Of a DNA stretch of 64,000 nucleotides, positions 40,227-64,000 are shown in pieces. The position numbers and the translations under genes were made by a program. Numbering within the stretch: the stretch's first letter is position 1; each line of letters opens with the position of its first letter. Below the pieces are notes generated by a model. It saw only the letters and a list, made by a program, of their open reading frames with translations. It was not told the origin of the DNA and made no database searches. Where the stretch lies: positions 750-64,749 of the forward strand of contig CAZSPC010000001.1 of the NCBI GenBank assembly GCA_964608745.1. Reading direction: 5' to 3'. Source of the stretch: an uncultured Candidatus Saccharibacteria bacterium. GTDB lineage: Bacteria > Patescibacteriota > Minisyncoccia > Phycocordibacterales > UBA12079.

Positions 40227-40697
40227 ATGCGTCGTCCAATCAAAGATAAAAGAAATATCCAGCCAGACCGAGTGTATAATTCGTTGGTTGTTGAGCGATT
40301 TATAAACTATCTTATGCTTGATGGTAAAAAATCAGTTGCCCGAAAGGTGGTGTATGATGCAATGGATATCATCAAGGAAAAAGCAAAAGTAAAAGATCCG
40401 ATGGAAGTATTCAATGGAGCTATCAAAAATGCAGGACCAATTATGGAAGTAAAATCTCGAAGAATTGGAGGGGCAAATTATCAGGTGCCTATTCAAGTTA
40501 AGGAGGATCGAAAACTATCACTTGCGATGCGATGGATTTTAGAAGCAGCGAGAGCAAAAAAAGGAACATCAATGAGTGAAAGATTAGCAGAAGAATTAAT
40601 TCAAGCTAATAACAAAGAAGGGGAGGTGATTAAGAAAAGAGAAAATGTTCACAAGATGGCGGAAGCGAATAAAGCCTTTGCCCACTTCGCTTGGTAA
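40227..40697 (+). CDS. rpsG: 30S ribosomal protein S7
   Basis: S7 sequence; follows rpsL. Confidence 0.9.
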   Translation: MRRPIKDKRNIQPDRVYNSLVVERFINYLMLDGKKSVARKVVYDAMDIIKEKAKVKDPMEVFNGAIKNAGPIMEVKSRRIGGANYQVPIQVKEDRKLSLAMRWILEAARAKKGTSMSERLAEELIQANNKEGEVIKKRENVHKMAEANKAFAHFAW

Positions 40698-40699
40698 AA

Positions 40700-40833
40700 T
40701 TATTCCAAAACTAGCGATATTCGTTCCTTTTTTCTCAAATTTCCGTTCACCTTATTCTAACCTTATTCTAAGATAAGGCTCACGAAAATTTTTCGAAAAA
40801 ATAAACGAATTTCATCTAGTTTTGAAATAATTT
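40700..40833 (+). repeat. family B (subtype b) long inverted repeat after rpsG
   Basis: ccaaaactagcgatattcgttcc ... ggctcacgaaaatttttcgaaaaaataaacgaatttcatctagttttg. Confidence 0.7.
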
Positions 40834-40881
40834 AAAAATTTTCAAAAAAATTAAAAAATTAAAAATTCTAAATTAAAAACT

Positions 40882-43032
40882 ATGAGTCGTGATTATCCAC
40901 TAGAAAAAGTCCGAAATATCGGAATTATTGCCCACATTGATGCGGGTAAAACAACTGTGTCTGAAAGAGTTCTTTTCTACACAGGACTTTCACATAAAAT
41001 TGGAGAAGTTCACGATGGTGATGCCACCATGGACTGGATGGAACAAGAGCAAGAGAGAGGTATTACTATTACTTCAGCTGCTACCACTACATTTTGGACT
41101 CCAACATATGATCCAACAAACACAGATCTAAAACACAGATTTAATATTATCGACACTCCAGGTCACGTTGACTTTACCGCAGAGGTGGAAAGGTCTCTTA
41201 AAGTGCTTGATGGTGGTGTTGTTGTTTTTGATGGTGTAGCGGGTGTGGAATCTCAATCTGAAACTGTTTGGCGACAAGCTGACAAATACAATGTTCCAAG
41301 AATTTGTTTTATTAATAAATTAGACCGAACAGGCGCATCATTCGAAAGATCTTTCAAATCTATCTTGGATAGACTTACACCAAATGCTGTGCGAGCTCAA
41401 CTTCCAATTAAAGAAGAGGGTGACCACGAAGGGGTAGTAGACTTGTTAACTATGAAGGCTTATTACTTCGAAGGGGAGATGGGTAAAGATGTTATTGAAA
41501 AAGATATACCAGAAGAAATGAAAGCTGACGTAGAAAAATATAGAGGAGAATTGATTGAAAAAATTGTGGAAAATGACGAAGAATTGATGAATGAATATTT
41601 GGAAGGAAATGAAATTCCATTGGATAAACTAAAAACAATTTTGAGAAAAGCTGTTATTGCCCTTGATATTGTTCCTGTTTATACAGGTTCAGCTTTGAAA
41701 AACAAGGGCGTGCAAAAACTTCTTGACGCTGTTGTTGATTATCTTCCTTCACCACTTGATATTCCTCCTGTAAAAGGAATTGATGCAAAAACAGAGGAAG
41801 AAGTAGAAAGAAAAGCATCCGATGAAGAACCGTTTTCAGCACTTGCTTTCAAATTACAAACTGATCCATTTGTGGGACAACTTACATTTTTCCGAGTTTA
41901 CTCTGGAACAGTAGAAGCTGGCTCATATATTTACAATTCAACAACTGGTAATAAAGAGAGACTAGGACGAATTCTGCGGATGCATTCAAACGAAAGAGAA
42001 GAGGTGAAGAAAGTTTATGCTGGTGAAATTGCAGCTGCCGTTGGGTTGAAAGATACAAAAACATCAGATACTTTGTGTGATGAAAATAATCCGGTAATTT
42101 TGGAGAAAATCGAATTTATGAAACCGGTTGTTTCTGTTCGAATTGAACCAAAGACCAAAGCTGACCAAGAAAAAATGGGTATTGCTTTGAAAAAACTTTC
42201 AGATGAAGATCCAACTTTCACAATTTCTACTGATGAAGAAACTCTGGAAACTATTATTTCAGGAATGGGTGAGCTTCACCTGGAAGTTTTGGTTGATCGA
42301 ATGAAAAGAGAATTCAATGTTGAAGCTAATATTGGAAAACCACAAGTAGCTTATCGAGAAACTATTCAAAATCCATCAGAAGCAGAAGTAAAATATGTAA
42401 AACAATCAGGAGGTCGTGGACAATATGGTCATGTGAAAATTAAAATTAAACCTCTTGATAAACTTACTGAGGAAGAAGAAAAGAATCTACCAAAAAATAC
42501 CAAGAGGTCAGAAGGAGGAATGGAGTTTGTTAATAGTATTAAAGGTGGTGTTATTCCACAAGAATATATTCCAGCTTGTGAAAAGGGAATAAAAGAAGGA
42601 ATGGAAAGGGGAGTTGTTGCTGGATATAAAATGGTAGATATTTCAACTGATTTATATGATGGTACATATCACGATGTTGACTCATCAGAAATTGCTTTCA
42701 AAATCGCTGCATCACAAGCTTTCCAAGAAGCTGCTAAAAAGGCTAACCCAGTATTATTGGAGCCGATTATGAAAGTTGAAGTTGTTACTCCGGAAGAGTT
42801 TATGGGTGATGTGAATGGAAACCTAAGCTCAAAGAGAGGGCAAATTGACTCAATGGAAGATAGGGGGGGAAATAAAGTAATCAATGCCAAAGTACCTCTA
42901 TCGGAAATGTTTGGTTATACTACAACACTGCGGTCAATGACAGAGGGTCGAGCAAATGCAACAATGGAATTTGATCATTATGCGACGGTTCCGGCTAATG
43001 TGGCACAAGAAATAATTGAGTCTAGAAAATAA
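40882..43032 (+). CDS. fusA: elongation factor G
   Basis: G1-G5 motifs ([18 protein letters not shown]), full-length EF-G. Confidence 0.95.
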
Positions 43033-43090
43033 AAATCTTCAAGCAAAGCCAGGCTTTTAGTTCGTAGAACCAGCCTGGCTTTTAGCTTGA
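43033..43090 (+). repeat. family H hairpin element / fusA terminator
   Basis: gcaaagccaggcttttagttcgtagaaccagcctggcttttagcttg; reverse-complement copy at 38110-38170. Confidence 0.6.
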
Positions 43091-43296
43091 GATTTTTATT
43101 TTCAATTACTCATCTTTAAATTTTAGTAACCTAGTTACCGGGTAACCCAAGAAAAACGGTTTTTTATTTTGTCTTATTTTCTTTTTTTTGATTATCTAGT
43201 ATTAAGTAGTAAGGTGTAAGTAATAAGTTTTCTTTTTGATTTTTCAATGGTCCGTCAGCTGACGGACCATTGAATTTTTTGTGTTAAAATAAACTT

Positions 43297-43866
43297 ATGA
43301 AAACAGCAATAATTTTACATGGGATGACTGTGTCAAAGGAAAGATATTTTGATCCAGATACCGAAGTCAAATCTAATAAGAATTGGTTACCTTGGATACA
43401 AAAACAATTACTTATTAATAATATTTTAGCTCAGGCAATTGAATTACCAAAACCTTACGAACCGGTTTATGAAGATTGGAAAAAAGTTTTTGAACAATTT
43501 AATATTGATGAAGAGACTATATTGATAGGACATAGTTGTGGGGCTGGTTTTTTAATTAGATGGTTGAGTGAAAATGATATAAAAGTTGGTAAGGTTGCTT
43601 TAGTTGCTCCATATTTAGGTTTGAACGGAATGGTTAAGTCAGATTTTTTTAATTTTGAAATAGATCCAAATGTTCCAGAGAGGACAAAAGGGTTGTTTGT
43701 GTTTTATTCTGATAACGACAAGGATCACACATTAGGAAGTGTAGATATATTGAAGAAGAATTTTAAAGGAGCAAAATTTATTGAATTAAAAGGTAGAGGA
43801 CACTTTATTTTAAAACATATGGGAACAAGAGAATTCCCAGAATTACGAGATGTTTTGTTAAAATAA
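43297..43866 (+). CDS. small alpha/beta serine hydrolase (YdeN/RBBP9-like)
   Basis: GHSCGAG nucleophile elbow (GxSxG); about 190-aa fold. Confidence 0.5.
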   Translation: MKTAIILHGMTVSKERYFDPDTEVKSNKNWLPWIQKQLLINNILAQAIELPKPYEPVYEDWKKVFEQFNIDEETILIGHSCGAGFLIRWLSENDIKVGKVALVAPYLGLNGMVKSDFFNFEIDPNVPERTKGLFVFYSDNDKDHTLGSVDILKKNFKGAKFIELKGRGHFILKHMGTREFPELRDVLLK

Positions 43867-43877
43867 AATTTTATTTA

Positions 43878-43992
43878 TCCTGTTAGAGATGTTGGGTTGT
43901 ATTCTCCGGGAAAGTGGTAAAGTATATATATTGAAAACATTACAAATTTAATTTATAAGATACGGAAACTTTGTTTCCTATCTCTAACGGGA
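43878..43992 (+). repeat. family C structured element ending at the GNAT gene start codon
   Basis: cctgttagagatg...tctccgggaaag...tacggaaactttgtttcctatctctaacggg; copy of 8517-8632. Confidence 0.6.
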
Positions 43993-44462
43993 TGAAAATA
44001 AGAAAAGCAACAATTAAAGATTTGGAGACAATTCAAAAACTTAACACGAAACTTTGTACAAAAGAATGTGAAGAATTTGATGGCACTTTGGTTCCCGATT
44101 ATCCTCTTACCGAAGAAGTAAAAGGTAAGCTTGAAAAACGTATTTTAGGTGATCTTTCTGCTGTTTTTGTTGTGGAAGTTGAGAATAAAATAATAGGATA
44201 TATTGTTGGTGGTATACAAAAGGATGAAAATTATAGAAATGTAAAAAATATTTGTGGATTGGGGGGTTTTTGGGTTGATGAGGAATATAGAAATGAAGGT
44301 GTTGGCAGCAAATTATTCGAAGAATTTCAAAGATGGTGTGAAAATAAAGATACTTCTAGATTACAAGTAACAGTTTCATCCCAAAATCTAAAAGCAATAA
44401 AATTTTATAAAAAAGAAGGTTTTGAAAAATACGATGTTGTTTTGGAGAAAGTTTTAAAATAA
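43971..44462 (+). CDS. GNAT family N-acetyltransferase
   Basis: Acetyl-CoA motif A FWVDEEYRNEGVGSKLFEEF. Confidence 0.7.
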   Translation: MFPISNGMKIRKATIKDLETIQKLNTKLCTKECEEFDGTLVPDYPLTEEVKGKLEKRILGDLSAVFVVEVENKIIGYIVGGIQKDENYRNVKNICGLGGFWVDEEYRNEGVGSKLFEEFQRWCENKDTSRLQVTVSSQNLKAIKFYKKEGFEKYDVVLEKVLK

Positions 44463-44465
44463 AAA

Positions 44466-44762
44466 ATGTTTTCAATATTAATTTACATTTTAATAGGGGT
44501 GGGTATTGGATTTTTGGTTTGGGGTTTTGTTGGTGGGAGTAGTGATGAGAAAAAAGAAGTATGTTTGAATGGTGAAGAAAAACGAGAAGAAAAGATTTTA
44601 GAATTTTTAGATAGAGAAGGGAAAATAACAAATAATCAAATTGAAGAAATGTTGGGTGTATCGGATACTTCGGTTGGAAGATATTTAGACGAATTGGAAA
44701 GAAAGGGGAAAATAAAACAAATCGGAAAAACAGGAAAAAGTGTCTATTACATCAAGAAATAG
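44466..44762 (+). CDS. small membrane-anchored winged-helix protein (98 aa)
   Basis: N-terminal TM; C-terminal wHTH-like GVSDTSVGRYLDELERKGKIKQ. Confidence 0.4.
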   Translation: MFSILIYILIGVGIGFLVWGFVGGSSDEKKEVCLNGEEKREEKILEFLDREGKITNNQIEEMLGVSDTSVGRYLDELERKGKIKQIGKTGKSVYYIKK

Positions 44763-45031
44763 TATAAATAATACTAAAAAACTACATCTCCGAATTATTG
44801 GAATTAAGGGTACGATAGTACCCTTAATTCCAATATGAAGTTAAAATTACTTTGGTACATTAAGAACCGATAGTTTCTTAATGTACCATATACAAAATTA
44901 AATTTTAGGATAAGGCTCAACATAGCCAACCCAAACGCCCCACGGGTGGGGCGTTTGGATTTTAATTGAACAAGTTAGTTTTTAGGGCTATAATTTAATT
45001 ATATTTATTACTAACTTAATTTTTTAAAAAA

Positions 45032-45718
45032 ATGGAAAATAAAAATTTAATCGGGGGAGCTGTTATTTTGGTTATAATCATTGTTGCGGTTGTTGTTTTT
45101 TCTGGAAATGACAAAGGTTTGGGGGGAAATAACATTTTTAATAAAGGGGGAAATTCCGGAACCCTTAAAGATTTTATGTCTGGTGTTATGGGTACTAATA
45201 TTTCCTGTGATTTTGGGCAGAAGATTGGTTTAGACAACGAATTAAAAGTGAAAACTTACATTGCAGGTGAAAAAGTGCGAGTTGATTATAAAATGAAAAA
45301 ACCGATTGAAGAAGGGCTTTCCGAGTGGCAAGATATGTACATTATTTCTGATGGAGAGTACACATATATTTGGGGAGACAGTCCTCTGGGAGGGGTGATG
45401 CAAGGAATGAAAATAAAACAAGAAGATTTTCAAGAGGAGGGTGAAAATGAGAATGTTCCGGTGGGCATGATTGATTACGAAACCCCGTTATCAAATTGTA
45501 ATAAGTGGTCTGTTGACAACAAAATGTTTGAAATTCCCAATGACATACAATTTTTTGATCCAACTAATATGATGGATATGATGTTTCAAGGAATGGGTAT
45601 ACCAGAGGAGATGGAGGTATCAGAAGAAGGAAGCATGGGTGAGGGAATAGATTGTTCTGTTTGTGATCAGTTACCAGTAGGACAAAAAGAAAGTTGCCTG
45701 CAAGCAATGGGGTGTTAG
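45032..45718 (+). CDS. secreted/anchored hypothetical protein with C-terminal Cys cluster (228 aa)
   Basis: N-terminal TM/signal; CSVCDQLPVGQKESCLQAMGC tail. Confidence 0.4.
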   Translation: MENKNLIGGAVILVIIIVAVVVFSGNDKGLGGNNIFNKGGNSGTLKDFMSGVMGTNISCDFGQKIGLDNELKVKTYIAGEKVRVDYKMKKPIEEGLSEWQDMYIISDGEYTYIWGDSPLGGVMQGMKIKQEDFQEEGENENVPVGMIDYETPLSNCNKWSVDNKMFEIPNDIQFFDPTNMMDMMFQGMGIPEEMEVSEEGSMGEGIDCSVCDQLPVGQKESCLQAMGC

Positions 45719-45864
45719 TTTGGGGGAAATAAAACGAAAAAACCACAATTTACAATTAGTTTATAAATTGTGGTTTTTTGTTGACTTTTTTATTGTAAAA
45801 GATTGGTCTGTGGTGTAGGTAGTATGTAGGAGTAAATACAAAAAATGAAAATAAGGAGAATATT

Positions 45865-46374
45865 ATGAGAGGAAGTATTATTGAGGGGTTAGCACTTGCA
45901 GATATGAAAATATTGGATGATGAATTGCGTTCAATTTTAAACTCAGAGGAACATCCGGGTTGTCTTTCTTGGATAAGTGAAAAAATGTCAGTTTTGGTTG
46001 TTTGTCATTTGGAATTGGATGAGTTTTCAAAACAAGTCGAAGAAATTGAAAATCTTGGTTTTCAATCGCCTTGGGATTTGCGCATTGTTAACGGTTGTTG
46101 TGGTGTGTTGTATGGTTGGGGAACATTTCTTTTTTCTCCTACCCCTAATAAATATACTTTAGAAAATCTTATTTCAATTTATCAAAATTCTGATTTTATT
46201 ATAAAGAAAGGGAATACTCATCTCGAAGCTGAAACGGCAGATATTGGTAAAATGATAATGTTTGCCGAAAAAATGTGGGGAGCAGGTTATATTCTTGTAA
46301 GTGGGATTAAACCGACAGAATACATAAGTGAAGATAACTGGCTTGTGAAAACGAGGTTTAGGCTATCTCAATAA
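45865..46374 (+). CDS. hypothetical protein (169 aa)
   Basis: AAGGAG SD; terminator hairpin 46400-46428. Confidence 0.4.
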   Translation: MRGSIIEGLALADMKILDDELRSILNSEEHPGCLSWISEKMSVLVVCHLELDEFSKQVEEIENLGFQSPWDLRIVNGCCGVLYGWGTFLFSPTPNKYTLENLISIYQNSDFIIKKGNTHLEAETADIGKMIMFAEKMWGAGYILVSGIKPTEYISEDNWLVKTRFRLSQ

Positions 46375-46552
46375 ATTTGTTTTGAACAAATATCACCAAA
46401 CACCGAGTCATTAGACTCGGTGTTTTTATTTAGATTTTTTAGTTGACTATTATTTCCGTTCTGTTATTATATTGGGATAATGCTAATGGCATTCGTTTTT
46501 TGTATTTAACCGCCTTTTTGGGGTGTTAATATAAATTATTAGAAATAATTTA

Positions 46553-46652
46553 AAGCGTTTAGCGTCCAGCGTTTAGCGTTGTAGTGAACAAATTTTGCCT
46601 TTGGCAAAATTTGTTAAAACCTATAACCCTAAACGCTAAACGCTAAACCCTA
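46553..46652 (+). repeat. family A structured repeat upstream of tuf
   Basis: agcgtttagcgtccagcgtttagcgttgtag / gaacaaattttgcctttggcaaaatttgtt / ctataaccctaaacgctaaacgctaaaccctat. Confidence 0.75.
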
Positions 46653-46662
46653 TAAAAAAATT

Positions 46663-47856
46663 ATGGCAGAAGAATTCAATAGAGATAAACCTCACGTAAA
46701 CGTGGGAACCATCGGTCACGTTGACCATGGTAAAACAACTCTTACTGCGGCAATTCTGCATGTTCTTGGTCTTGCTGGTCAAGAAACAAGCAAAAAAGGT
46801 GTTGATGAAATCGACAACGCCCCAGAAGAGAAAGAAAGAGGAATTACAATTGCTCTTTCTCACCAAGAGTATAGTACAGAAAATAGACACTATGCTCACG
46901 TTGATGCTCCCGGCCACGCCGACTACATCAAAAATATGATCACAGGTGCTGCTCAAATGGATGGTGCTATCCTTGTAGTAGCCGCTAACGACGGTGCGAT
47001 GCCTCAAACAAGAGAACATATCTTGTTGGCAAAGCAAGTTGGTGTACCTAAAATCATTGTATTCTTGAACAAGACAGACTTGGTAGATGATCAAGAAATG
47101 GTAGAGCTTGTTGAAGAAGAAGTAAAAGAAATGCTAACTCAATATGAGTTCGATGGAGAAAACACTCCATTTATTAAAGGTTCAGCTGTTAAAGCTCTTG
47201 AAGCATCATCAGTAGATGATGAATGGGCAAAACCAATTATTGAATTGGCAAAACAGTTGGATGAATACATCCCAGTTCCTGAAAGAGATACTGATAAGCC
47301 TTTCCTAATGCCTATCGAGGACATTTTCTCAATTGAAGGACGAGGAACTGTTTGTACAGGTAAAATCGAAAGAGGAATTGTTAAGGTTGGTGAAGATGTA
47401 GAAATTGTTGGTATTAAAGATACTGAAAAAACTACTGTTACCGGAGTTGAAATGTTCAACAAGTCTCTACAAGAAGGACAGGCTGGAGACAACGCTGGAA
47501 TTTTGATTCGAGGTATTAAAAAAGAAGATGTTCACAGAGGACAAGTTCTTTCAAAACCTGGAACAGTTACTCCACACACAGAATTCGAAGCAGAAGTATA
47601 TGTCTTGAAGAAAGAGGAAGGTGGACGACATACTCCGTTCTTCTCAGGTTATAAACCTCAGTTCTACATTCGAACAACTGATGTTACCGGAGAAGTAACA
47701 TTGGCAGAAGGAACTGAAATGGTTATGCCAGGAGATACCGCTGTATTTAAAGTAAAACTTCAAGCTCCTATTGCTCTTGAAGAACAACAAAGATTTGCTG
47801 TTCGAGAAGGGGGTAGAACTGTTGGAGCGGGGGTGGTTACAAAAATCACCGCTTAA
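46663..47856 (+). CDS. tuf: elongation factor Tu
   Basis: [19 protein letters not shown] motifs; 397 aa. Confidence 0.95.
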
Positions 47857-47861
47857 TAAAT

Positions 47862-47981
47862 TATCCCAAAACTAGCGACCTTCGTTTCTTTTTTCTCAAA
47901 ATTCCGTTCACCGTATTGTTATACGACTCACGAAATTTTTTCAAAAAAAGAAACGAATCTCATCTAGTTTTGAAATAATTT
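47862..47981 (+). repeat. family B (subtype b) long inverted repeat after tuf
   Basis: near-identical to 40040-40163. Confidence 0.7.
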
Positions 47982-48179
47982 AAACAATTTATAGAGGTTA
48001 AAATTATTAAAAATTTTAACCTTACTAAGTGTCGCTTGTTCTCAGGCGACACCATAGTGAGGTTAAAGTTAGAGATTTTGATGTTTATGTCTGTTGAGTA
48101 TTCAACTAAAACACAAAATTAAAAACTTGTTTTTGTTTCCTCTTAAAAACAAAGACAAATATTACAATTAAATTATTTG

Positions 48180-48276
48180 AGCGTTTGGCGTATAGCATTT
48201 AGCGTTGTAGTGAACAAATTTTGCCAAAGGTAAAATTTGTTTAAACCTATAACCCTAAACGCTAAACCCTATACCC
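48180..48276 (+). repeat. family A structured repeat upstream of rpsJ
   Basis: gcgtttggcgtatagcatttagcgttgtag / gaacaaattttgccaaaggtaaaatttgtt / ctataaccctaaacgctaaaccctataccct. Confidence 0.75.
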
Positions 48277-48283
48277 TAATTTT

Positions 48284-48664
48284 ATGACTACTAAAAAAAC
48301 AACTACTAAAAAAGTAGCGAAAAAGACAACTAAAAAAGCTACCAAAAAAACCGAAGGAATCGGAAAACTTCGAATCCGAGTTTTTGCTTATGAGCACAAG
48401 CTACTTGATTCATCAATCAAGCAAATTATTGATACTGCTTTGCGATACGATGCAGAGATTTCAGGACCAATTCCACTTCCGACTCAAATCAAAAAATATA
48501 CAGTTAACCGATCAACTTTCGTACATAAAGATTCTCGTGAACAATACGAAATGAGAGTACATCGAAGACTAATTGATATTCTTAATCCTTCAGCTAAGAT
48601 TATTGAGGCGTTGACGAATTTAAGTTTACCGTCAGGAGTATCTATCGATGTAAAAGTAATGTAA
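48284..48664 (+). CDS. rpsJ: 30S ribosomal protein S10 with ~23-aa K/T-rich N-terminal extension
   Basis: LRIRVFAYEHKLLDSSIKQIIDTA core matches S10. Confidence 0.9.
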   Translation: MTTKKTTTKKVAKKTTKKATKKTEGIGKLRIRVFAYEHKLLDSSIKQIIDTALRYDAEISGPIPLPTQIKKYTVNRSTFVHKDSREQYEMRVHRRLIDILNPSAKIIEALTNLSLPSGVSIDVKVM

Positions 48665-48667
48665 TTA

Positions 48668-48790
48668 AATTTTTCCAGAATTGGCGAATTTCGCTTTTGT
48701 TTCGGCAAGAATTTCAGTCGTAGTATTTGGTTATACAACTTCTTCAATTCTCACCAAAACAAAAGCGAACTTCATCCAATTCTGAAAAAA
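48668..48790 (+). repeat. family B (subtype a) long inverted repeat after rpsJ
   Basis: ccagaattggcgaatttcgcttttgtttcggcaagaatt ... aattctcaccaaaacaaaagcgaacttcatccaattctg. Confidence 0.7.
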
Positions 48791-48990
48791 TTGAAAATTG
48801 AATTTAATTTCGAAAAAATAAAAAATTCAGAAGCAAGGCTTCTGAATTTTTTGTTTTTTCACTATCTTTTCTATCTTTCGTCTTTGCGATCCGTCAGCCG
48901 ACGGATTCATAATCCGTCAGCCGACGGAGAAGCAATCCAGTCGCAGGTATCGCCAGGGCGAACCCAAAATTCTCTTACTCCTTATTCCTA

Positions 48991-49016
48991 GAAATTTCAG
49001 CCTCAACTGAAATTTC
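48991..49016 (+). promoter_or_regulatory. operator-like inverted repeat immediately upstream of promoter P1
   Basis: gaaatttcag-6nt-ctgaaatttc; duplicated at 50313-50337. Confidence 0.45.
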
Positions 49017-49017
49017 C

Positions 49018-49046
49018 TTGACTTCTATTTGACATTAAATTATAGT
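49018..49046 (+). promoter_or_regulatory. consensus sigma70-type promoter P1 (TTGACT-17-TATAGT)
   Basis: exact spacing and near-consensus hexamers; about 80-bp block duplicated at 50281-50367. Confidence 0.6.
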
Positions 49047-49108
49047 AATTGCAGAATTTTGAATTGTAAAAGATGAGTAAATTAAAAACAAAATAATAAA
49101 AAAGGAGG

Positions 49109-49711
49109 TTGGTTATGGGATGTTCAACAAAGTGTAGTCCAATAAGTCCAAAAGTTTTCTTTTCCTGCTTGTATGTTATTGGCGTAGTTTTATTGTTTTT
49201 TGGTGGTGTTATAACCTATACAGCGTTTTCCGAGCGCAAATTGCCCGATCCGATAGTAGAGCAAATCTTTCTCCCCAAGAATTATCAGGTTGTTGATTGC
49301 GATTATAGGTATAAAATTCAAGCAATTCCTGTAATCATGAGTGATAAAGTCGCAAAGAACTTTTTTGATTCAACAGAAAAAGAATTTTTGGTATTTAAAT
49401 GTTTTGGGCGTGAACTCAGTATTTATTATTACTGGGAAGATCAGAGTACGCCGGTGATTAAGACAAAAAGTTGGAAAAAGACTTATAATATCTCTAATCA
49501 CAAAGATAACCCTTCGGGTTTTTCTTCCTGGAGAACCACTATTGATGAAGGGAGTAATAGGGTCGTCCATAAGCCGGTAAGTTCGTTTTTAGACGGTATT
49601 TTTATTGGAGGCATTTTTACCTTGTTTGGCTTGATACTATTTGTTGCGACTGTCGTGATATTTAATAAGTATAAGAAAGAAAAAAGAAGTAATAAAGGAG
49701 GTGTCAGATGA
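49109..49711 (+). CDS. bitopic (N-TM ... C-TM) membrane protein of unknown function, paralog A
   Basis: GGAGG SD; LPDPIVEQIFLPKNYQ, DSTEKEF, YYYWEDQ...SWKK shared with ORF 50430-51038. Confidence 0.5.
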   Translation: MVMGCSTKCSPISPKVFFSCLYVIGVVLLFFGGVITYTAFSERKLPDPIVEQIFLPKNYQVVDCDYRYKIQAIPVIMSDKVAKNFFDSTEKEFLVFKCFGRELSIYYYWEDQSTPVIKTKSWKKTYNISNHKDNPSGFSSWRTTIDEGSNRVVHKPVSSFLDGIFIGGIFTLFGLILFVATVVIFNKYKKEKRSNKGGVR

Positions 49712-50211
49712 CACAAAATATTCAGGTAGAAGAAAAACCTTTACTGGAACTGGTTGAAACAATCAAGGTTCCAGCAGTCAAAAAGTTTGTTGCCAGCGAA
49801 AAGTTTATCGTCGGCAAGACAATCGACGGTGTTCGTATTTCTTATATTGGGGGAGATTTCAACGAAATTTTTCTTGATAAAATCGAGCAACATATTCCGG
49901 AAGTAGAACTGAGAGTCAGAAGGCAGACAAGAACTTTTTCTCGGGAAAACCCTACTGGTGGTATTCCTGGAATTAAAAAGATTTGTGTTGATCTTGCCAC
50001 TTTTTGGGAGTTTTTGAAAGTAAAAAGTGAGAACTATGAAACAGGCAAGTTTACTTTTTGGATCCCCCCTTGTAATAACTGTGAAAAAATACTCTGGAAA
50101 GTGGAGGTAATAAATGCTTTTGGTGACTCCTGGAGCATTGGTTCCTGTTTTCCTAAGTCTAATGAATACTATGGTAAGTGGGGTCTTGAAACTTTTGTTT
50201 TTTCTGATTAA
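49708..50211 (+). CDS. soluble hypothetical protein (167 aa) translationally coupled to paralog A
   Basis: ATGA overlap with upstream stop; GGAGG SD; terminator hairpin 50233-50285. Confidence 0.5.
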   Translation: MTQNIQVEEKPLLELVETIKVPAVKKFVASEKFIVGKTIDGVRISYIGGDFNEIFLDKIEQHIPEVELRVRRQTRTFSRENPTGGIPGIKKICVDLATFWEFLKVKSENYETGKFTFWIPPCNNCEKILWKVEVINAFGDSWSIGSCFPKSNEYYGKWGLETFVFSD

Positions 50212-50338
50212 TATTTGATTTCAGTTGTTTACTGAAACCCTTTGAAAATTTGTCACCCCGACAGAGTTTCAAAGGGTTTTTCTTATTCCTCACCCCTTAT
50301 TCCTTATTCCTAGAAATTTCAGTTTTATTGAAATTTCC

Positions 50339-50367
50339 TTGACTTCTATTTGACAATAAATTATAGT
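50339..50367 (+). promoter_or_regulatory. consensus sigma70-type promoter P2 (TTGACT-17-TATAGT), duplicate of P1
   Basis: identical hexamers and spacer except 1 nt. Confidence 0.6.
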
Positions 50368-50429
50368 AATTGCAGAATTTGAAAATTATTTCTAGGACAA
50401 ACTTGAAAATCAAAAAATAGGAGATTATT

Positions 50430-51038
50430 ATGAGACGTAACGGTTCTACAAGTATATCTATTAGCTCTAAGTTAACAAATGTTGCTGGTATTATTTTGAT
50501 GGTACTTCTTCTGCTTCCTTCAGGGATGATGATCTATAAAGGATATCAAGTGGTAAATAAATGGGGTGTTGATTATGTTCTTCCAGAGCCACAAAGAGAA
50601 AAGATTTTGTTACCAAAAAAATACAAATTTATTTCTTTGAAAACTGCTGAAAGAATAAAATTTTTAGAGATTAAAGATCATAGTACTGAAAAAGAAATAT
50701 CTATTTCTAATAAACCTTTTTTAATTACTACTGGGCGGCGCAACAATGATATTGTTATCAAATATTTTTGGGAGAACAGTGGTCCACACAAAAAAATTTT
50801 TCCAGCATATAGTTGGGAAAAAGTTCATTCGACTTCTAGCTACCTTTCTGATTATTTGAGGCAAGTAGCTATATGGTATATGAGAATAGATAAGAAAAAT
50901 AATATAATAGTTTATACACCAACAAAAGCCAAAGCCGATCTTATCGCTATAGCAGGAGCAATTCTTATGTCTATCGGCATGCTATTTTTTGTACTGTTAT
51001 GGTATAAATTATATATTTTTTTTTTGAAAAATAAGTAA
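50430..51038 (+). CDS. bitopic membrane protein of unknown function, paralog B
   Basis: AGGAG SD; LPEPQREKILLPKKYK, HSTEKEI, KYFWEN...SWEK; N- and C-terminal TM helices. Confidence 0.5.
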   Translation: MRRNGSTSISISSKLTNVAGIILMVLLLLPSGMMIYKGYQVVNKWGVDYVLPEPQREKILLPKKYKFISLKTAERIKFLEIKDHSTEKEISISNKPFLITTGRRNNDIVIKYFWENSGPHKKIFPAYSWEKVHSTSSYLSDYLRQVAIWYMRIDKKNNIIVYTPTKAKADLIAIAGAILMSIGMLFFVLLWYKLYIFFLKNK

Positions 51039-51250
51039 TTCAAATAGATACCCATATTTGTTTTTAAAATAAATATGGGTTTTTATTATTTGTATTCGAC
51101 TCTCGATTTTTAAAATTTCCCTTGATTTTCGTTTAATTTTGTGTAAAATATTACAAGTTACTTAAAGGTTTAGCGCCTTTTTTTAATTTTGCGAATTGAT
51201 TACCTAGTATTTGTATATATTCGTATTATTAGTATCATTTGTATATTAGT

Positions 51251-51856
51251 ATGTTTATCTTGGGTACAAAAGAAGAAATGACACAAATCTTTGATAAAGA
51301 AGGGCAAGTTCAGCCTGTTACTATTATTAATGCAGGGCCAATTAAAGTAACTCAAATAAAAGACCAAGAAAAGGATGGTTACGAAGCGGTACAAGTTGGG
51401 TATGGAGAAAAAAGTGAAAAAAATATCAACAAACCGGAAAAGGGGCATATGAAAGACTTGGGAAACTTCCGATATTTGAGAGAATTTAAGGCAAGCGAAG
51501 AGATGAAAGCAGGAGATGAGATAAATGTATCAGCTTTTGCAGAAGGGGATATTGTTGAAATTTCAGCAGTTAGTAAAGGAAAAGGATTTCAAGGTGTTGT
51601 AAAAAGACATAATTTTGCTGGAGGTCCAAGATCTCACGGACAAAAGCACAGTGAAAGAAAACCAGGATCAATTGGATCAACAGGACCTCAAAGGGTGTTT
51701 AAAGGTACAAGAATGGCAGGAAGAATGGGAAGTGACAGAACCACTGTTAAAAATTTAAAAATTGTACAAGTAGACGAGAAGGGGAATCGATTATTGGTGA
51801 AAGGTGCTGTTCCGGGTAAAAGAGGAAGCCTAGTCGAAATACGAAGTGTTAAATAA
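51251..51856 (+). CDS. rplC: 50S ribosomal protein L3
   Basis: MFILGTKEEMTQIFDKEGQVQPVTII aligns with L3 N-terminus; a TTG at 51239 is an alternative start. Confidence 0.85.
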   Translation: MFILGTKEEMTQIFDKEGQVQPVTIINAGPIKVTQIKDQEKDGYEAVQVGYGEKSEKNINKPEKGHMKDLGNFRYLREFKASEEMKAGDEINVSAFAEGDIVEISAVSKGKGFQGVVKRHNFAGGPRSHGQKHSERKPGSIGSTGPQRVFKGTRMAGRMGSDRTTVKNLKIVQVDEKGNRLLVKGAVPGKRGSLVEIRSVK

Positions 51857-51962
51857 ATTTTTTATTTTTAATTTATAATTTTTAAAAAATGATTAAATTT
51901 AAAAATTTTTAAATTAATTCATTAAAAATTGTTTATAAATCAAAAATTACAAATTAAAAATT
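51857..51962 (+). repeat. family D AT-rich repeat between rplC and rplD
   Basis: AT-only inverted repeats resembling 8834-8968 and 15496-15642. Confidence 0.45.
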
Positions 51963-52625
51963 ATGAAGGCTACGATATACAACCAAAAAGGAATAAAGTC
52001 GAATGAAATCTCTTTGCCGGAGAGTATATTTGGGTTGTCCTGGAACAACGATCTTGTTCATCAGGTGGTTGTTTCTATGATGTCAAATGCTCGAACTGGT
52101 GTTGCTCATACAAAAGATAGAAGTGATGTGCGAGGTGGTGGTAGAAAACCTTGGAGACAAAAGGGAACTGGACGAGCACGACATGGATCAAGTCGGTCAC
52201 CAATTTGGAGAAGTGGTGGAGTAACTTTTGGTCCAAGAAAGGAAAAGAATTTTTCAAAGAAAATCAACAAAAAAATGAGTGCCAAAGCATTGTACACAGT
52301 GTTGTCTCAAAAGGCAGGAGATGGGGAAATTCTTTTTGTTGATAATTTTGATATAAAAGAACCAAAAACAAAAGAGGCAAAAACTATCTTTGAAGCACTG
52401 GGTAAAATAAAAGGATTTGAAGGAATGGTTTCAAAGAAAAAAAATTCTGCCTTCATTGCTTTGGATGAAAAAAATGAAAATGTAGAAAAGTCTTTTAGTA
52501 ATTTTGGAAATATTCAGATGGGGGAAGTGAGAAATTTGAATATATTGAATCTTTTGAATAATAAATATCTTATTATTGAAAATCCAGAGAGTGCATTTAA
52601 GTTTTTTGAGAAAAAACTTAAATGA
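51963..52625 (+). CDS. rplD: 50S ribosomal protein L4
   Basis: KPWRQKGTGRARHGS motif. Confidence 0.85.
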   Translation: MKATIYNQKGIKSNEISLPESIFGLSWNNDLVHQVVVSMMSNARTGVAHTKDRSDVRGGGRKPWRQKGTGRARHGSSRSPIWRSGGVTFGPRKEKNFSKKINKKMSAKALYTVLSQKAGDGEILFVDNFDIKEPKTKEAKTIFEALGKIKGFEGMVSKKKNSAFIALDEKNENVEKSFSNFGNIQMGEVRNLNILNLLNNKYLIIENPESAFKFFEKKLK

Positions 52626-52627
52626 AA

Positions 52628-52750
52628 GGGTTTAGCGTCTAGTGTTTAGGGTTGTAGGAATGAATTTTGCCGAAGGCAAAATTCGTCAATGAAAAAATTG
52701 CTTTAGCAATTTTTTATCTATAACCCTAAACGCTAAACCCTACAACCCTA
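52628..52750 (+). repeat. family A structured repeat (two inner hairpins) upstream of rplW
   Basis: gtttagcgtctagtgtttagggttgtag / gaatgaattttgccgaaggcaaaattcgtc / gaaaaaattgctttagcaattttttatc / ctataaccctaaacgctaaaccctacaaccct. Confidence 0.75.
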
Positions 52751-52759
52751 ATAAATAAT

Positions 52760-53065
52760 ATGAAAACAACAGATACAAAAAATAATATTGGAAATTTAGA
52801 AAACATAATCTTACGACCTAGAATTACTGAGAAAGCATCAGATAAAGCAACAGAAAATGTTTATGTTTTTGAAGTTGTACCAAATGCTAATAAAGTACAA
52901 ATCAAAGAAGCGGTGGAAAAAATTTATAAAGTGAAGGCTGTAAAGGTAAATATTGCCCAAACTCCATCAAAAACTATTTTTTCAAGAGGAAAGAAGGGGG
53001 TGAAAAGTGGAGGAAAGAAAGCGTATGTTTATCTTAAAGAGGGAGACAAAATTGAGATTATCTAA
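52760..53065 (+). CDS. rplW: 50S ribosomal protein L23
   Basis: L23 sequence; operon position. Confidence 0.85.
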   Translation: MKTTDTKNNIGNLENIILRPRITEKASDKATENVYVFEVVPNANKVQIKEAVEKIYKVKAVKVNIAQTPSKTIFSRGKKGVKSGGKKAYVYLKEGDKIEII

Positions 53066-53160
53066 GGAGGAATAAAGAATAAGGACTTAGGAATGTAGGA
53101 ATGAATTTTGCCTTCGGCAAAATTCATTCAAGACTTATTCCTCATTCCTTATTTCTAGGT
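53066..53160 (+). repeat. family A variant repeat (aggaataagga arms) upstream of rplB
   Basis: ggaggaataaagaataaggacttaggaatgtag / gaatgaattttgccttcggcaaaattcattc / cttattcctcattccttatttctaggtcct. Confidence 0.7.
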
Positions 53161-53229
53161 CCTAATTTAAAAATTAAGGTTAACGGTAGCCGATAATTAT
53201 CGCGGGTGAAAAGCCCAAAAACAAGAACT

Positions 53230-54072
53230 ATGAAGACTAACAAACCAACAACACCATCACGAAGACATATGACAGGTATTAATTACCGAGATTTTTTGAC
53301 TACTTCAAAACCTAAGAAATCTCTAACAAAAGGAGGAAAAAGAGGTGTGGGACGAAACGCTTTTGGGAGAATTACTATGCGACATAGAGGTGGTGGTCAT
53401 AAAAGAAAATACCGACAAATTGATTTTAAATATAATAAATTTGATATTCCGGCAAAAATTGAAACTATCGAATATGATCCTTACCGATCAGGTTTTATTG
53501 CTTTAATTTGTTATCGGGACGGAGAAAGACGATACATTCTTGCTCCTAAATCTGTAAAGGTTGGAGATCAGATAATTGTTTCCGAAAAAGCACAATTGAA
53601 ACCAGGAAATAGATTAATTTTGAAAAATATTCCTGTTGGAACATTTGTATACAATGTTGAACTAAAACCACAATCAGGAGCAAAGATTGCTCGATCTGCT
53701 GGAAATTATGTAGAAGTGATTGCTCAAGATGCAGGTTATACTCATTTGAAAATGCCCTCAACAGAGGTTCGAAAAGTAATGGACACTGCTTGGGCTTCAA
53801 TTGGAGAAGTATCAAACGATGAACATAAACTTGTGACAATTGGAAAAGCTGGACGATCACGATGGATGGGGAAAAGACCAACGGTTCGAGGATCAGCTAT
53901 GAACCCAGTGGATCACCCATATGGTGGTGGTGAAGGTAAGGCAGGACGAGGAATGAGAAGAGCAAAGACTAAATGGGGTAAACCTGCTGGAAAAGGACAA
54001 AAGACAAGAAAACCAAAGAAATACTCAAATCCGTTTATTGTAAGACGACGTAAAGTCGGCAAACGAAAATAA
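53230..54072 (+). CDS. rplB: 50S ribosomal protein L2
   Basis: MKTNKPTTPSRRH aligns with L2 N-terminus; GTG at 53206 is a possible alternative start. Confidence 0.9.
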   Translation: MKTNKPTTPSRRHMTGINYRDFLTTSKPKKSLTKGGKRGVGRNAFGRITMRHRGGGHKRKYRQIDFKYNKFDIPAKIETIEYDPYRSGFIALICYRDGERRYILAPKSVKVGDQIIVSEKAQLKPGNRLILKNIPVGTFVYNVELKPQSGAKIARSAGNYVEVIAQDAGYTHLKMPSTEVRKVMDTAWASIGEVSNDEHKLVTIGKAGRSRWMGKRPTVRGSAMNPVDHPYGGGEGKAGRGMRRAKTKWGKPAGKGQKTRKPKKYSNPFIVRRRKVGKRK

Positions 54073-62885: not shown

Positions 62886-63074
62886 CTATAATATTGTATC
62901 ATTTTTTTCTTTCAATTCACTGACCTCATTTTTTGTTGTTTCGTGTTTTGTTTTTTTACATTTCTTTTTGGGTTTGATTCCGATGTTTTTTACGACACCT
63001 TTAAGTCTAGGGGCAACTCTTAATTTACCCCAAAATCTTTGCCAACCTCTTCCTTTTTTTCTTATTTTTATCAT
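62886..63074 (-). CDS. small highly basic hypothetical protein (62 aa)
   Basis: ORF divergent from AbrB-like gene; no motif. Confidence 0.3.
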   Translation of the reverse strand: MIKIRKKGRGWQRFWGKLRVAPRLKGVVKNIGIKPKKKCKKTKHETTKNEVSELKEKNDTIL

Positions 63075-63106
63075 ACCTATATTGTATCATTTTAGGGGGA
63101 ATAAGG

Positions 63107-63146
63107 TATCATACAAGTATCGTACTAGTACGATACTTGTATGATA
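63107..63146. promoter_or_regulatory. 40-bp perfect palindrome, candidate operator
   Basis: tatcatacaagtatcgtact|agtacgatacttgtatgata, 12 bp upstream of the AbrB-like ORF. Confidence 0.45.
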
Positions 63147-63157
63147 CAATATTAGAT

Positions 63158-63313: not shown

Positions 63314-63332
63314 TTTTTTTGATTCACTGAAA

Positions 63333-63552
63333 GAAAAAATCCCTATTCACGTTGATAGGGATTAAAGAAGGGGACAAACGGTTAAGTTTGTCCCCTTTCA
63401 GCATCAGCCAGATTCGTTCTGGCAGAAAGCTGGAGGCCGGAGACTACTCAATGGTGGTACCGGCGGCCGGGCAGGTTACGGAATTTTCATTTCTAAAAAA
63501 TAAAGTTTTGGATACAGGGTGTCCTCGGGTCATGGCGGGGTCTCCTTTTTGA
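63333..63552 (+). ncRNA. GC-rich multi-hairpin region, candidate structured ncRNA or cis-regulatory leader
   Basis: about 50% GC in a one-third-GC genome; nested perfect hairpins (atccctat..atagggat, ggggacaaacggttaagtttgtcccc, gccagattcgttctggc) closed by ctgaaag/ctttcag; GGTGGTACCG resembles the T-box core; ends in T-run. Confidence 0.25.
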
Positions 63553-63786
63553 AAATTTGTCAAGTGTTTTTTGTTGACTTTTTGTTTTTAAAAGACTAAT
63601 GTGTATTTAGAAATTAGAGAATTGTATTTTGAAAAATTTATCTCAAAGGATATCGTGCTCACCATAAAATATGTATTTAAGTATTTATTTTATGGTGAAG
63701 TGGGATATCCTCGTTTCATCCTGCTAGTATGCTAGTGGAATAGTCCTTGGATTATTATTTTGATCCTTTTGTTTTAGGAGGAAGTC

Positions 63787-64000
63787 ATGATTGAGTTAGA
63801 TGATGGTGTTAAGAGAATGTTGGAGAGATCTAATTTTTATAGTTTAGGTCATGGTGTTGGTCAAAATTTTAATGGATTTACTGTAAAGACAGAAGTAGTT
63901 CCTATGAGAATTTTCCAGTATTTCATCACTAATTTGTTTTTACAAAAAGATAAAGAAGAAAAAAACAGAGAGAATTTTTTGATTACCCTGTTAAATCTTT
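63787..64000 (+). CDS. hypothetical protein, 3'-truncated by window end
   Basis: strong SD AGGAGGAAGTC + ATG; open to window end. Confidence 0.4.
   Translation, partial: MIELDDGVKRMLERSNFYSLGHGVGQNFNGFTVKTEVVPMRIFQYFITNLFLQKDKEEKNRENFLITLLNL

Follow-up and report, generated by a model that had tools for sequence, protein, structure and literature searches.

At the 3' end of the 64-kb window analysed here (the whole stretch of 64,000 nucleotides, with a GC content of 34.0%, from an AT-rich, Candidatus Campbellbacteria-like genome), a GC-rich element of ~225 nt (63327-63552) lies between an abrB/mazE-like gene, complete and with its stop codon 13 nt before the element, and a gene at 63788 that has a promoter and a leader of its own. 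We read this element, tentatively, as a lineage-specific structured RNA that is transcribed from the plus strand by read-through of the abrB/mazE-like gene and stops at an intrinsic terminator of its own. The analysis itself shows a structure signal, a strand asymmetry and a terminator in the element and, for the next gene, a separate promoter that is conserved; relatives lack the element, and it matches no known RNA family.

The sequence-only reading of this stretch had described a genuine GC-rich multi-hairpin element, and this description was borne out by its GC content, by a check of the motifs and by a shuffle test. The GC content of 63333-63552 is 47.7% (about 50% had been claimed), and the element contains the top 120-nt GC peak of the window (0.55). 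All the hairpins and motifs reported earlier are present (Table 1), although some had been placed one base off. The plus strand of 63320-63560 folds with -92 kcal/mol, compared with -64.7 +/- 4.6 kcal/mol for dinucleotide shuffles (z -5.9; none of the 200 shuffles as good), and the structure of the element exceeds chance. In particular, the hairpins P1a, P1b, P2/P2a and P3 are present in every fold regardless of the flanks. P2/P2a is capped by a hairpin with the stem GCCAGA/TCTGGC and the loop TTCGT, while the outer helix P0 is weak (pairing probability ~0.33), with the CTGAAAG/CTTTCAG pair as the alternative closing. The 3' end consists of a G+C-rich hairpin followed by a U-run, as in a terminator-ended small RNA or a structured 3' untranslated region (UTR); its hairpin (63516-63547) has a pairing probability of 0.99, and forcing open the 5' arm costs at least 9.5 kcal/mol, with no antiterminator or alternative helix arising. 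Two parts of the element are strand-specific in stability, namely P3 (-16.2 on the plus and -9.3 on the minus strand) and the terminator hairpin (-12.8 and -4.1, respectively). The plus-strand fold furthermore uses 10 G-U pairs, and the plus strand has more G than C (61 vs. 43) and more T than A (58 vs. 53). The asymmetry of P3 and of the 3' hairpin, the G-U pairs and the base excesses favour the plus strand as the transcribed one.

Table 1. Coordinates of the element, of its parts and of the flanking features within the window.
Feature	Position	Strand	Remarks
Perfect palindrome, 42 nt (GTATCATACAAGTATCGTACT/AGTACGATACTTGTATGATAC)	63106-63147		precedes the abrB-like gene
AbrB/MazE/SpoVT-type gene, 51 aa	63158-63313	+	Pfam PF04014, E 2.5e-7; homologues P0002-P0020
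CTGAAAG/CTTTCAG	63327-63333/63395-63401		enclosing pair of the sequence-only reading, found
P0 closing helix, 5' strand (GAAAGAAAA)	63329-63337	+	pairs with 63484-63493 in the minimum free energy (MFE) fold
Hairpin P1a	63338-63363	+	10 bp (AATCCCTATT/GATAGGGATT), loop CACGTT; stability -10.9 (+), -9.8 (-)
ATCCCTATTCACGTTGATAGGGAT	63339-63362		motif of the sequence-only reading, found
Hairpin P1b	63367-63398	+	13 bp, loop GGTTAA; stability -20.1 (+), -19.4 (-)
GGGGACAAACGGTTAAGTTTGTCCCC	63370-63395		motif of the sequence-only reading, found
P2/P2a	63399-63432	+	stems CAGC/GCTG and TC/GA, unpaired bases between, AA bulge on the 3' side; stability -13.0 on both strands
GCCAGATTCGTTCTGGC	63407-63423		found
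Hairpin P3	63436-63464	+	GCCGG/CCGGC and ACTACT/GGTGGT (2 G-U pairs), loop CAAT
GGTGGTACCGGCGG	63453-63466		T-box-like motif, found
CCGGCGGCCGG	63460-63470		found
Weak 4-bp hairpin GGCC/GGTT	63465-63477	+	low confidence
P0 closing helix, 3' strand (TTTTCATTTC)	63484-63493	+	MFE fold
A-rich spacer, mostly unpaired	63494-63515	+	3' end joins a weak outer helix in the MFE fold
Intrinsic terminator	63516-63550	+	interrupted 10-bp G+C-rich hairpin (AGGGTGTCCTCG...CGGGGTCTCCTT) running into T5 (63546-63550)
GGGTCTCC	63538-63545		found; followed by T5 (63546-63550)
Predicted promoter of the next gene, TTGACT-17-TAATGT	63574-63602	+	outside the element, downstream of its terminator
Predicted true 5' leader of gene 63788 (~190 nt)	63603-63787	+	outside the element; long hairpin at ~63646-63712

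No sigma-70-like promoter was seen directly upstream of the element on either strand, and no plus-strand terminator was found between the abrB stop codon and the element, which together point to read-through from the abrB promoter. We infer that the element is transcribed, that it is co-transcribed with the abrB-like gene, and that RNA rather than DNA is its functional form. Such an RNA of ~225 nt would comprise a 5' domain of four robust hairpins (63327-63493), the A-rich spacer and a constitutive terminator, and would form the 3' portion of the abrB transcript, either as a structured 3' UTR or as a 3'-UTR-derived small RNA, under the control of the palindromic operator ahead of abrB. Its role, at a guess, may be to bind a protein, to stabilise the transcript or to act in trans. 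Nothing in the predicted fold is switchable, and we therefore favour a 3' element or small RNA that binds a protein or stabilises the transcript over a sensor. Like the generally known 3'-UTR-derived or terminator-ended bacterial small RNAs, the element comes straight after a stop codon, no terminator lying between the two, ends with an intrinsic terminator and is ~200 nt long with several hairpins. It differs from them in being far more GC-rich and structured than typical base-pairing small RNAs, in offering no obvious single-stranded seed, and in having neither homologues nor a known chaperone context.

The 42-nt palindrome ahead of the abrB-like gene is presumed to be the operator of this gene, and half-sites related to it (ATATTGTATCAT) occur at 62891-62905 and 63079-63093, around a divergent 62-aa open reading frame (ORF). 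An identical palindrome precedes an abrB homologue of at least 90% identity in a different assembly (L035:137-178), where the abrB cassette is bracketed by ~75-nt inverted repeats. In further loci (L024-L027), an ORF with a weak match to NYN (PIN-like) nucleases begins 20 nt after the homologous abrB gene, an arrangement that resembles a toxin-antitoxin pair. The locus shares with the MazE/AbrB type II toxin-antitoxin modules the order of their parts: an AbrB/MazE-fold gene with a palindromic operator and the look of autoregulation comes first, and a second element follows directly in the same putative transcription unit. It differs from them in having structured non-coding sequence, not a protein gene, where the toxin would be encoded. 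A type II module was rejected here, the antitoxin-type domain (PF04014) being present but with no protein gene coming after it. We know of no system in which a protein antitoxin has an RNA partner of such a form.

The sequence-only reading had proposed that the element could be a riboswitch or leader of the gene at 63788, possibly of the T-box type, or else a free-standing small RNA. A cis-regulatory leader (T-box, other riboswitch or attenuator) is suggested by the common orientation of element and gene, by the structured domain followed by a terminator, and by GGUGGUACCG, a stretch of 10-nt identity to what we take to be the T-box consensus. Nevertheless, we hold a leader role to be very improbable. 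The predicted promoter of the gene lies past the terminator of the element, and its block TTGTTGACTTTTTGT ... TAAATG is conserved in five related loci (L156, L157, L236, L238 and L247), in all of which the orthologue is preceded by a ~190-nt leader that includes a long hairpin, is conserved in its 3' part and is kept in position and shape. The element is absent from these five loci, which carry a short unrelated hairpin before the promoter instead, and its terminator sits where the relatives have the terminator of their upstream gene. As far as the sequences can be read, this comparison, with promoter and leader conserved in five relatives and the element in none, is the decisive point against the leader reading, and together with the lack of a homologue in the collections searched it led us to reject a riboswitch of any class. 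The leader part of the earlier proposal is thereby abandoned, and the small-RNA part is still viable.

The T-box itself could be examined at the level of structure. A search against Rfam 15 gave no match at the gathering score over the whole window, and at E <= 10, on 1.1 kb and on 251 nt, it gave only chance matches of microRNA and small nucleolar RNA type, RF00230 being absent. The sequence-only reading had itself named the lack of an Rfam match and of covariation in homologues as refuting, and on these terms the claim of a known class is refuted, the data searched containing no homologues in which covariation could be read. In T-boxes, the 5'-UGGN-3' sequence is unpaired in the antiterminator bulge, in a structure mutually exclusive with the terminator (TBDB, bioRxiv 10.1101/2020.06.17.157016). 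In the element, the GGUGGUACCG stretch resembles the UGGN-containing T-box sequence, and a structured RNA is likewise followed by a hairpin and a U-run, but most of the T-box-like motif GGTGGTACCGGCGG belongs to P3, where UGGU (63456-63459) is paired with ACUACU instead of lying in an antiterminator bulge, and no antiterminator competes with the terminator. The 5' part consists of two perfect hairpins (10 and 13 bp) with an optional 7-bp closing helix, lacking a Stem I and an internal specifier bulge. Overall, the element differs from T-boxes in having no covariance-model match and no competing fold, and in lying outside the 5' UTR of the next gene, from which it is parted by the conserved promoter. 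According to the text of the TBDB report, T-boxes occur mainly in Firmicutes, Actinobacteria, Chloroflexi and Deinococcus-Thermus, and Patescibacteria are not mentioned in that text (bioRxiv 10.1101/2020.06.17.157016).

Pfam, NCBIfam, PADLOC and PHROG all gave no assignment for the downstream gene (63788-64000 in the window, continuing in L001:670-1727), which is therefore not taken to be an amino-acid-related or tRNA-synthetase gene, which again speaks against a T-box. In L156 it is one ORF of 341 aa. The window organism has ORFs of 106 and 260 aa in its place, in different frames and with a 46-nt overlap, and five independent assemblies agree on this split; the gene represents either a pseudogene or a case of programmed frameshifting. 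Divergence in the family is rapid, at ~22% identity where the rplB of the same genomes is still 83% identical, and the 260-aa protein has no relatives in viral contigs. The leader of this gene (63603-63787) is itself a candidate cis-regulatory RNA, with no Rfam match. It is conserved in at least six Campbellbacteria-like loci (e.g., L156:11098-11250 and L157:11203-11358), with hairpin arms that vary while their pairing is kept, and 3' of the hairpin it contains the conserved blocks YTTYATCCTG and GTCCTTT, followed by a Shine-Dalgarno sequence.

Other known RNA classes were tried and rejected. Group I introns are common in Patescibacteria (PMC13011429), but the element has no Rfam match to them, no complement for the 3' strand of an intron P3 by inspection, and an upstream abrB gene that is complete. 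For an intron-containing tRNA, ARAGORN with introns allowed returned nothing at default, and at a relaxed threshold nothing but spurious calls, among them a 'tRNA-Asn with a 169-nt intron'. By inspection against consensus sequences, we also rejected RNase P RNA, signal recognition particle (SRP) RNA, 6S RNA, tmRNA, the cobalamin B12 box, SAM-I and glmS; the omega RNA of IscB/TnpB, the bridge RNA of IS110 and the non-coding RNAs of retrons and DRT; and type III toxin-antitoxin repeats, integron attC sites and IS200/605 ends. None of the domains required by these RNA or mobile classes was found among the neighbouring proteins.

The 66-aa ORF annotated over the element (63352-63552), already suspected to be spurious, most likely is. 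Its GC content at the three codon positions is 0.50/0.45/0.52, the third-position value (GC3) of 0.52 contrasting with 0.19-0.31 in the real genes of the window, and its TTG start lies within P1a with no Shine-Dalgarno sequence. The deduced protein has no Pfam match and no homologue among 5.8 billion proteins, where its own sequence is absent too. Against 1.84 billion cluster representatives its matches were all due to chance, namely to repeat proteins from GC-rich organisms with an LPAGDYRVVV motif that we read as PEGA-like; the same query served as a proxy for homologous RNA miscalled as protein. Translation of this ORF, or of its 33-aa C-terminal part from the ATG at 63451, would find support in the open frame itself and in a GGAGA ~7 nt ahead of that internal ATG, but GC-rich DNA naturally has few stop codons, and we consider it most improbable that the element is coding.

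Several observations weigh against a structured RNA made from the plus strand. No homologue of the element was found in any collection searched, and covariation thus lends it no support. After five close homologues of the abrB-like gene in other genomes (72-90% identical) no element-like sequence follows, so that the link between the element and abrB is positional only. Three of the five hairpins (P1a, P1b and P2a) are perfect palindromes that would serve just as well on the other strand or as DNA, and the minus strand also ends in a canonical terminator, formed by P1a and a T-run. The searches covered 80 SOD-anchored Paceibacteria loci (1.3 Mb) and 14 metagenome loci anchored on the lineage-specific 5' end of the 23S rRNA gene (together ~1.5 Mb), in neither of which nhmmer, BLAST or a covariance model of the four robust hairpins, with filters on or off, retrieved a homologue. 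BLAST against phages and plasmids gave no match. Two patterns of the P3 region, partly degenerate with 14 bases fixed and the others coded as purine or pyrimidine, had no match in 596 Gb of species-representative genomes and none in JGI metagenomes. In viral contigs, the pattern AATGGTGGTACCGGCGG gave 14 chance matches in glycine-rich coding sequence, and a loop-anchored pattern gave 120 chance matches, none with complementary stems. The element is 100% identical in five assemblies of SRA data from the same organism, which thus offer no variation. A likeness of P3 to a 23S rRNA hairpin (GGAGAUUUCCGAAUGGGGAAACC) was dismissed, because the element aligned locally with the 23S gene no better than shuffles did, and so were GC-rich islands in related loci (L178, L185, L198, L226:5350-5600 and others), the similarity of which is within chance. 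In L226:5350-5600, a TTGACA...TATAAT promoter leads into ~200 nt of GC-rich, structured sequence ahead of the ORF homologous to the 318-aa ORF of the window, with no Rfam match.

A second island of the same genome, Ca. Campbellbacteria RIFOXYC2_FULL_35_25 (L226:14215-14420), is an unclassified GC-rich stretch of ~210 nt, identical in a metagenome contig (L248) and with no match in Rfam. It lies in the same broad interval between the SOD and 23S genes as the element, is of similar length, and agrees with it in four features and in their order: an A-run followed by an AAATCCC...GGGATTT hairpin, a 10-bp hairpin with the loop GGTTAAGT, CAGCCAGA, and ATGGTG..ACC. Its immediate neighbours, however, are not those of the element, and it is the minus strand that folds better (z -4.8 vs. 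-3.0) and that bears a near-consensus promoter (TTGACA-17-TATTAT) together with a strong terminator. The score of the alignment between the two was matched by 10 of the 500 shuffles (p ~0.02), and the covariance model of the element scored 8 bits on it, within noise. Homology between the two is accordingly treated as a possible lead and not as a finding. The island also contains a Shine-Dalgarno-led ORF of 28 codons with a cysteine-rich tail (HCRGKCCSGCGGG).

The minus-strand terminator and this island bear on a different account, according to which the transcript runs on the minus strand from ~63555 down to a terminator of P1a and T-run (63363-63335), as a small RNA or as the mRNA of a ~29-aa peptide. 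A canonical intrinsic-terminator site was called there (9 bp followed by TTTTTTCTTTCA; P1a with T6CTTTC behind it reads as a terminator on this strand), the minus strand of 63320-63560 still folds with -70.7 kcal/mol (z -4.1), and an ATG at 63533 with GGAGA 7 nt before it lies inside a 39-aa ORF. We nonetheless judge a minus-strand transcript unlikely: no promoter-like site is present upstream of the element on that strand, P3 and the 3' hairpin each lose 7-9 kcal/mol, and the small minus-strand ORFs of the window and of L226 have no similarity. That it retains some weight is mainly due to the strand of the similar-looking L226 island, the homology of which is unproven.

The perfect palindromes leave room for another alternative, namely that the element is foreign or mobile DNA, such as a remnant of an insertion or of a miniature inverted-repeat transposable element (MITE)-like unit, in which the palindromes act at the DNA level and no RNA function exists. 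The spot is variable, since the five related loci keep the promoter and the synteny from SOD to 23S but have the short unrelated hairpin there; the GC content of the element is foreign to the genome; and the neighbouring abrB cassette with its identical operator is found in unrelated contexts. Still, only one copy is present in the 64-kb window, neither terminal inverted repeats nor a target duplication were found at the element, the P3-region patterns remained unmatched in the genome and metagenome collections, and nothing came from phage, plasmid or viral collections, while the reliance of two hairpins on G-U pairs points to selection at the RNA level. A mobile-DNA origin without RNA function is also a minority possibility in our view, and the structured plus-strand RNA is retained as the preferred, if provisional, reading. 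A bolder version of it, to which we give little credence, is that a new class of structured RNA partners the AbrB/MazE-fold protein within a single autoregulated operon, in place of a protein toxin, as an effector or as a protein-bound RNA, or that it founds, together with the L226 island, a Campbellbacteria-specific RNA family with a conserved GGUUAAG loop and an AUGGUG..ACC motif.

Regarding the wider setting, the window carries rpoB/C-like, fusA, tuf, rplC, rplD and rplB genes, with small unknown ORFs between them and nearly all on the plus strand, and ARAGORN found no tRNA or tmRNA genes across it. The nearest relatives among species-representative genomes are metagenome-assembled genomes of Candidatus Campbellbacteria, in particular GW2011_OD1_34_28 (L156; CP011215.1), with 74% identity to the window in SOD and 83% in rplB, followed by L157 and L226. 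The order rplB, 318-aa ORF, fpg, bile-acid/Na+ symporter-family transporter, SOD, ..., uncharacterised gene, 23S rRNA is kept in the relatives, and the 23S rRNA gene of the window organism starts ~1.8 kb downstream of the element, as seen in same-organism Logan contigs that reach past the window end. The organism is present in the samples SRR8146440/1, SRR31802803/4 and SRR24302411/18. Between the 260-aa ORF and this 23S rRNA gene (L001:1775-1960), a TTGACT-17-TATACT promoter is followed by ~100 nt ending in a hairpin and T-run and then by a 20-bp palindrome, probably an rRNA leader or another small transcript. Elsewhere in the window, rpsG, fusA, tuf, rplC, rplD and rplB (40227-54072) are spaced by unknown ORFs and long spacers, and the S10-type operon appears to end after rplB. 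The second GC-rich intergenic island of the window, unrelated to the element, is located in a long intergenic region (48880-48960) and includes two tandem GC-rich palindromes (ATCCGTCAGCCGACGGAT) and more G+C-rich sequence. The largest GC-rich tract (1304-1920; up to 0.54 GC) lies inside a minus-strand ORF (1391-1903) and may represent a horizontally acquired gene.

The element fits no described RNA family but, as an orphan of a single genome, does not qualify as a new class; we place it, unclassified, in the broad group of terminator-ended structured small RNAs or 3' UTRs. An orphan of this kind, with thermodynamic support, carries no general conclusion, although the negatives are useful in themselves: the element is no T-box and does not serve the next gene as its leader, and no reliance should be placed on the annotated 66-aa ORF. 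To our knowledge, regulation in Patescibacteria is almost unexplored and regulatory RNAs are almost unknown in them. If expressed, the element would be among the very few candidate structured RNAs of this group beyond the housekeeping set, and its location behind an operator-controlled AbrB/MazE-type gene would offer a concrete link between an RNA and a protein.

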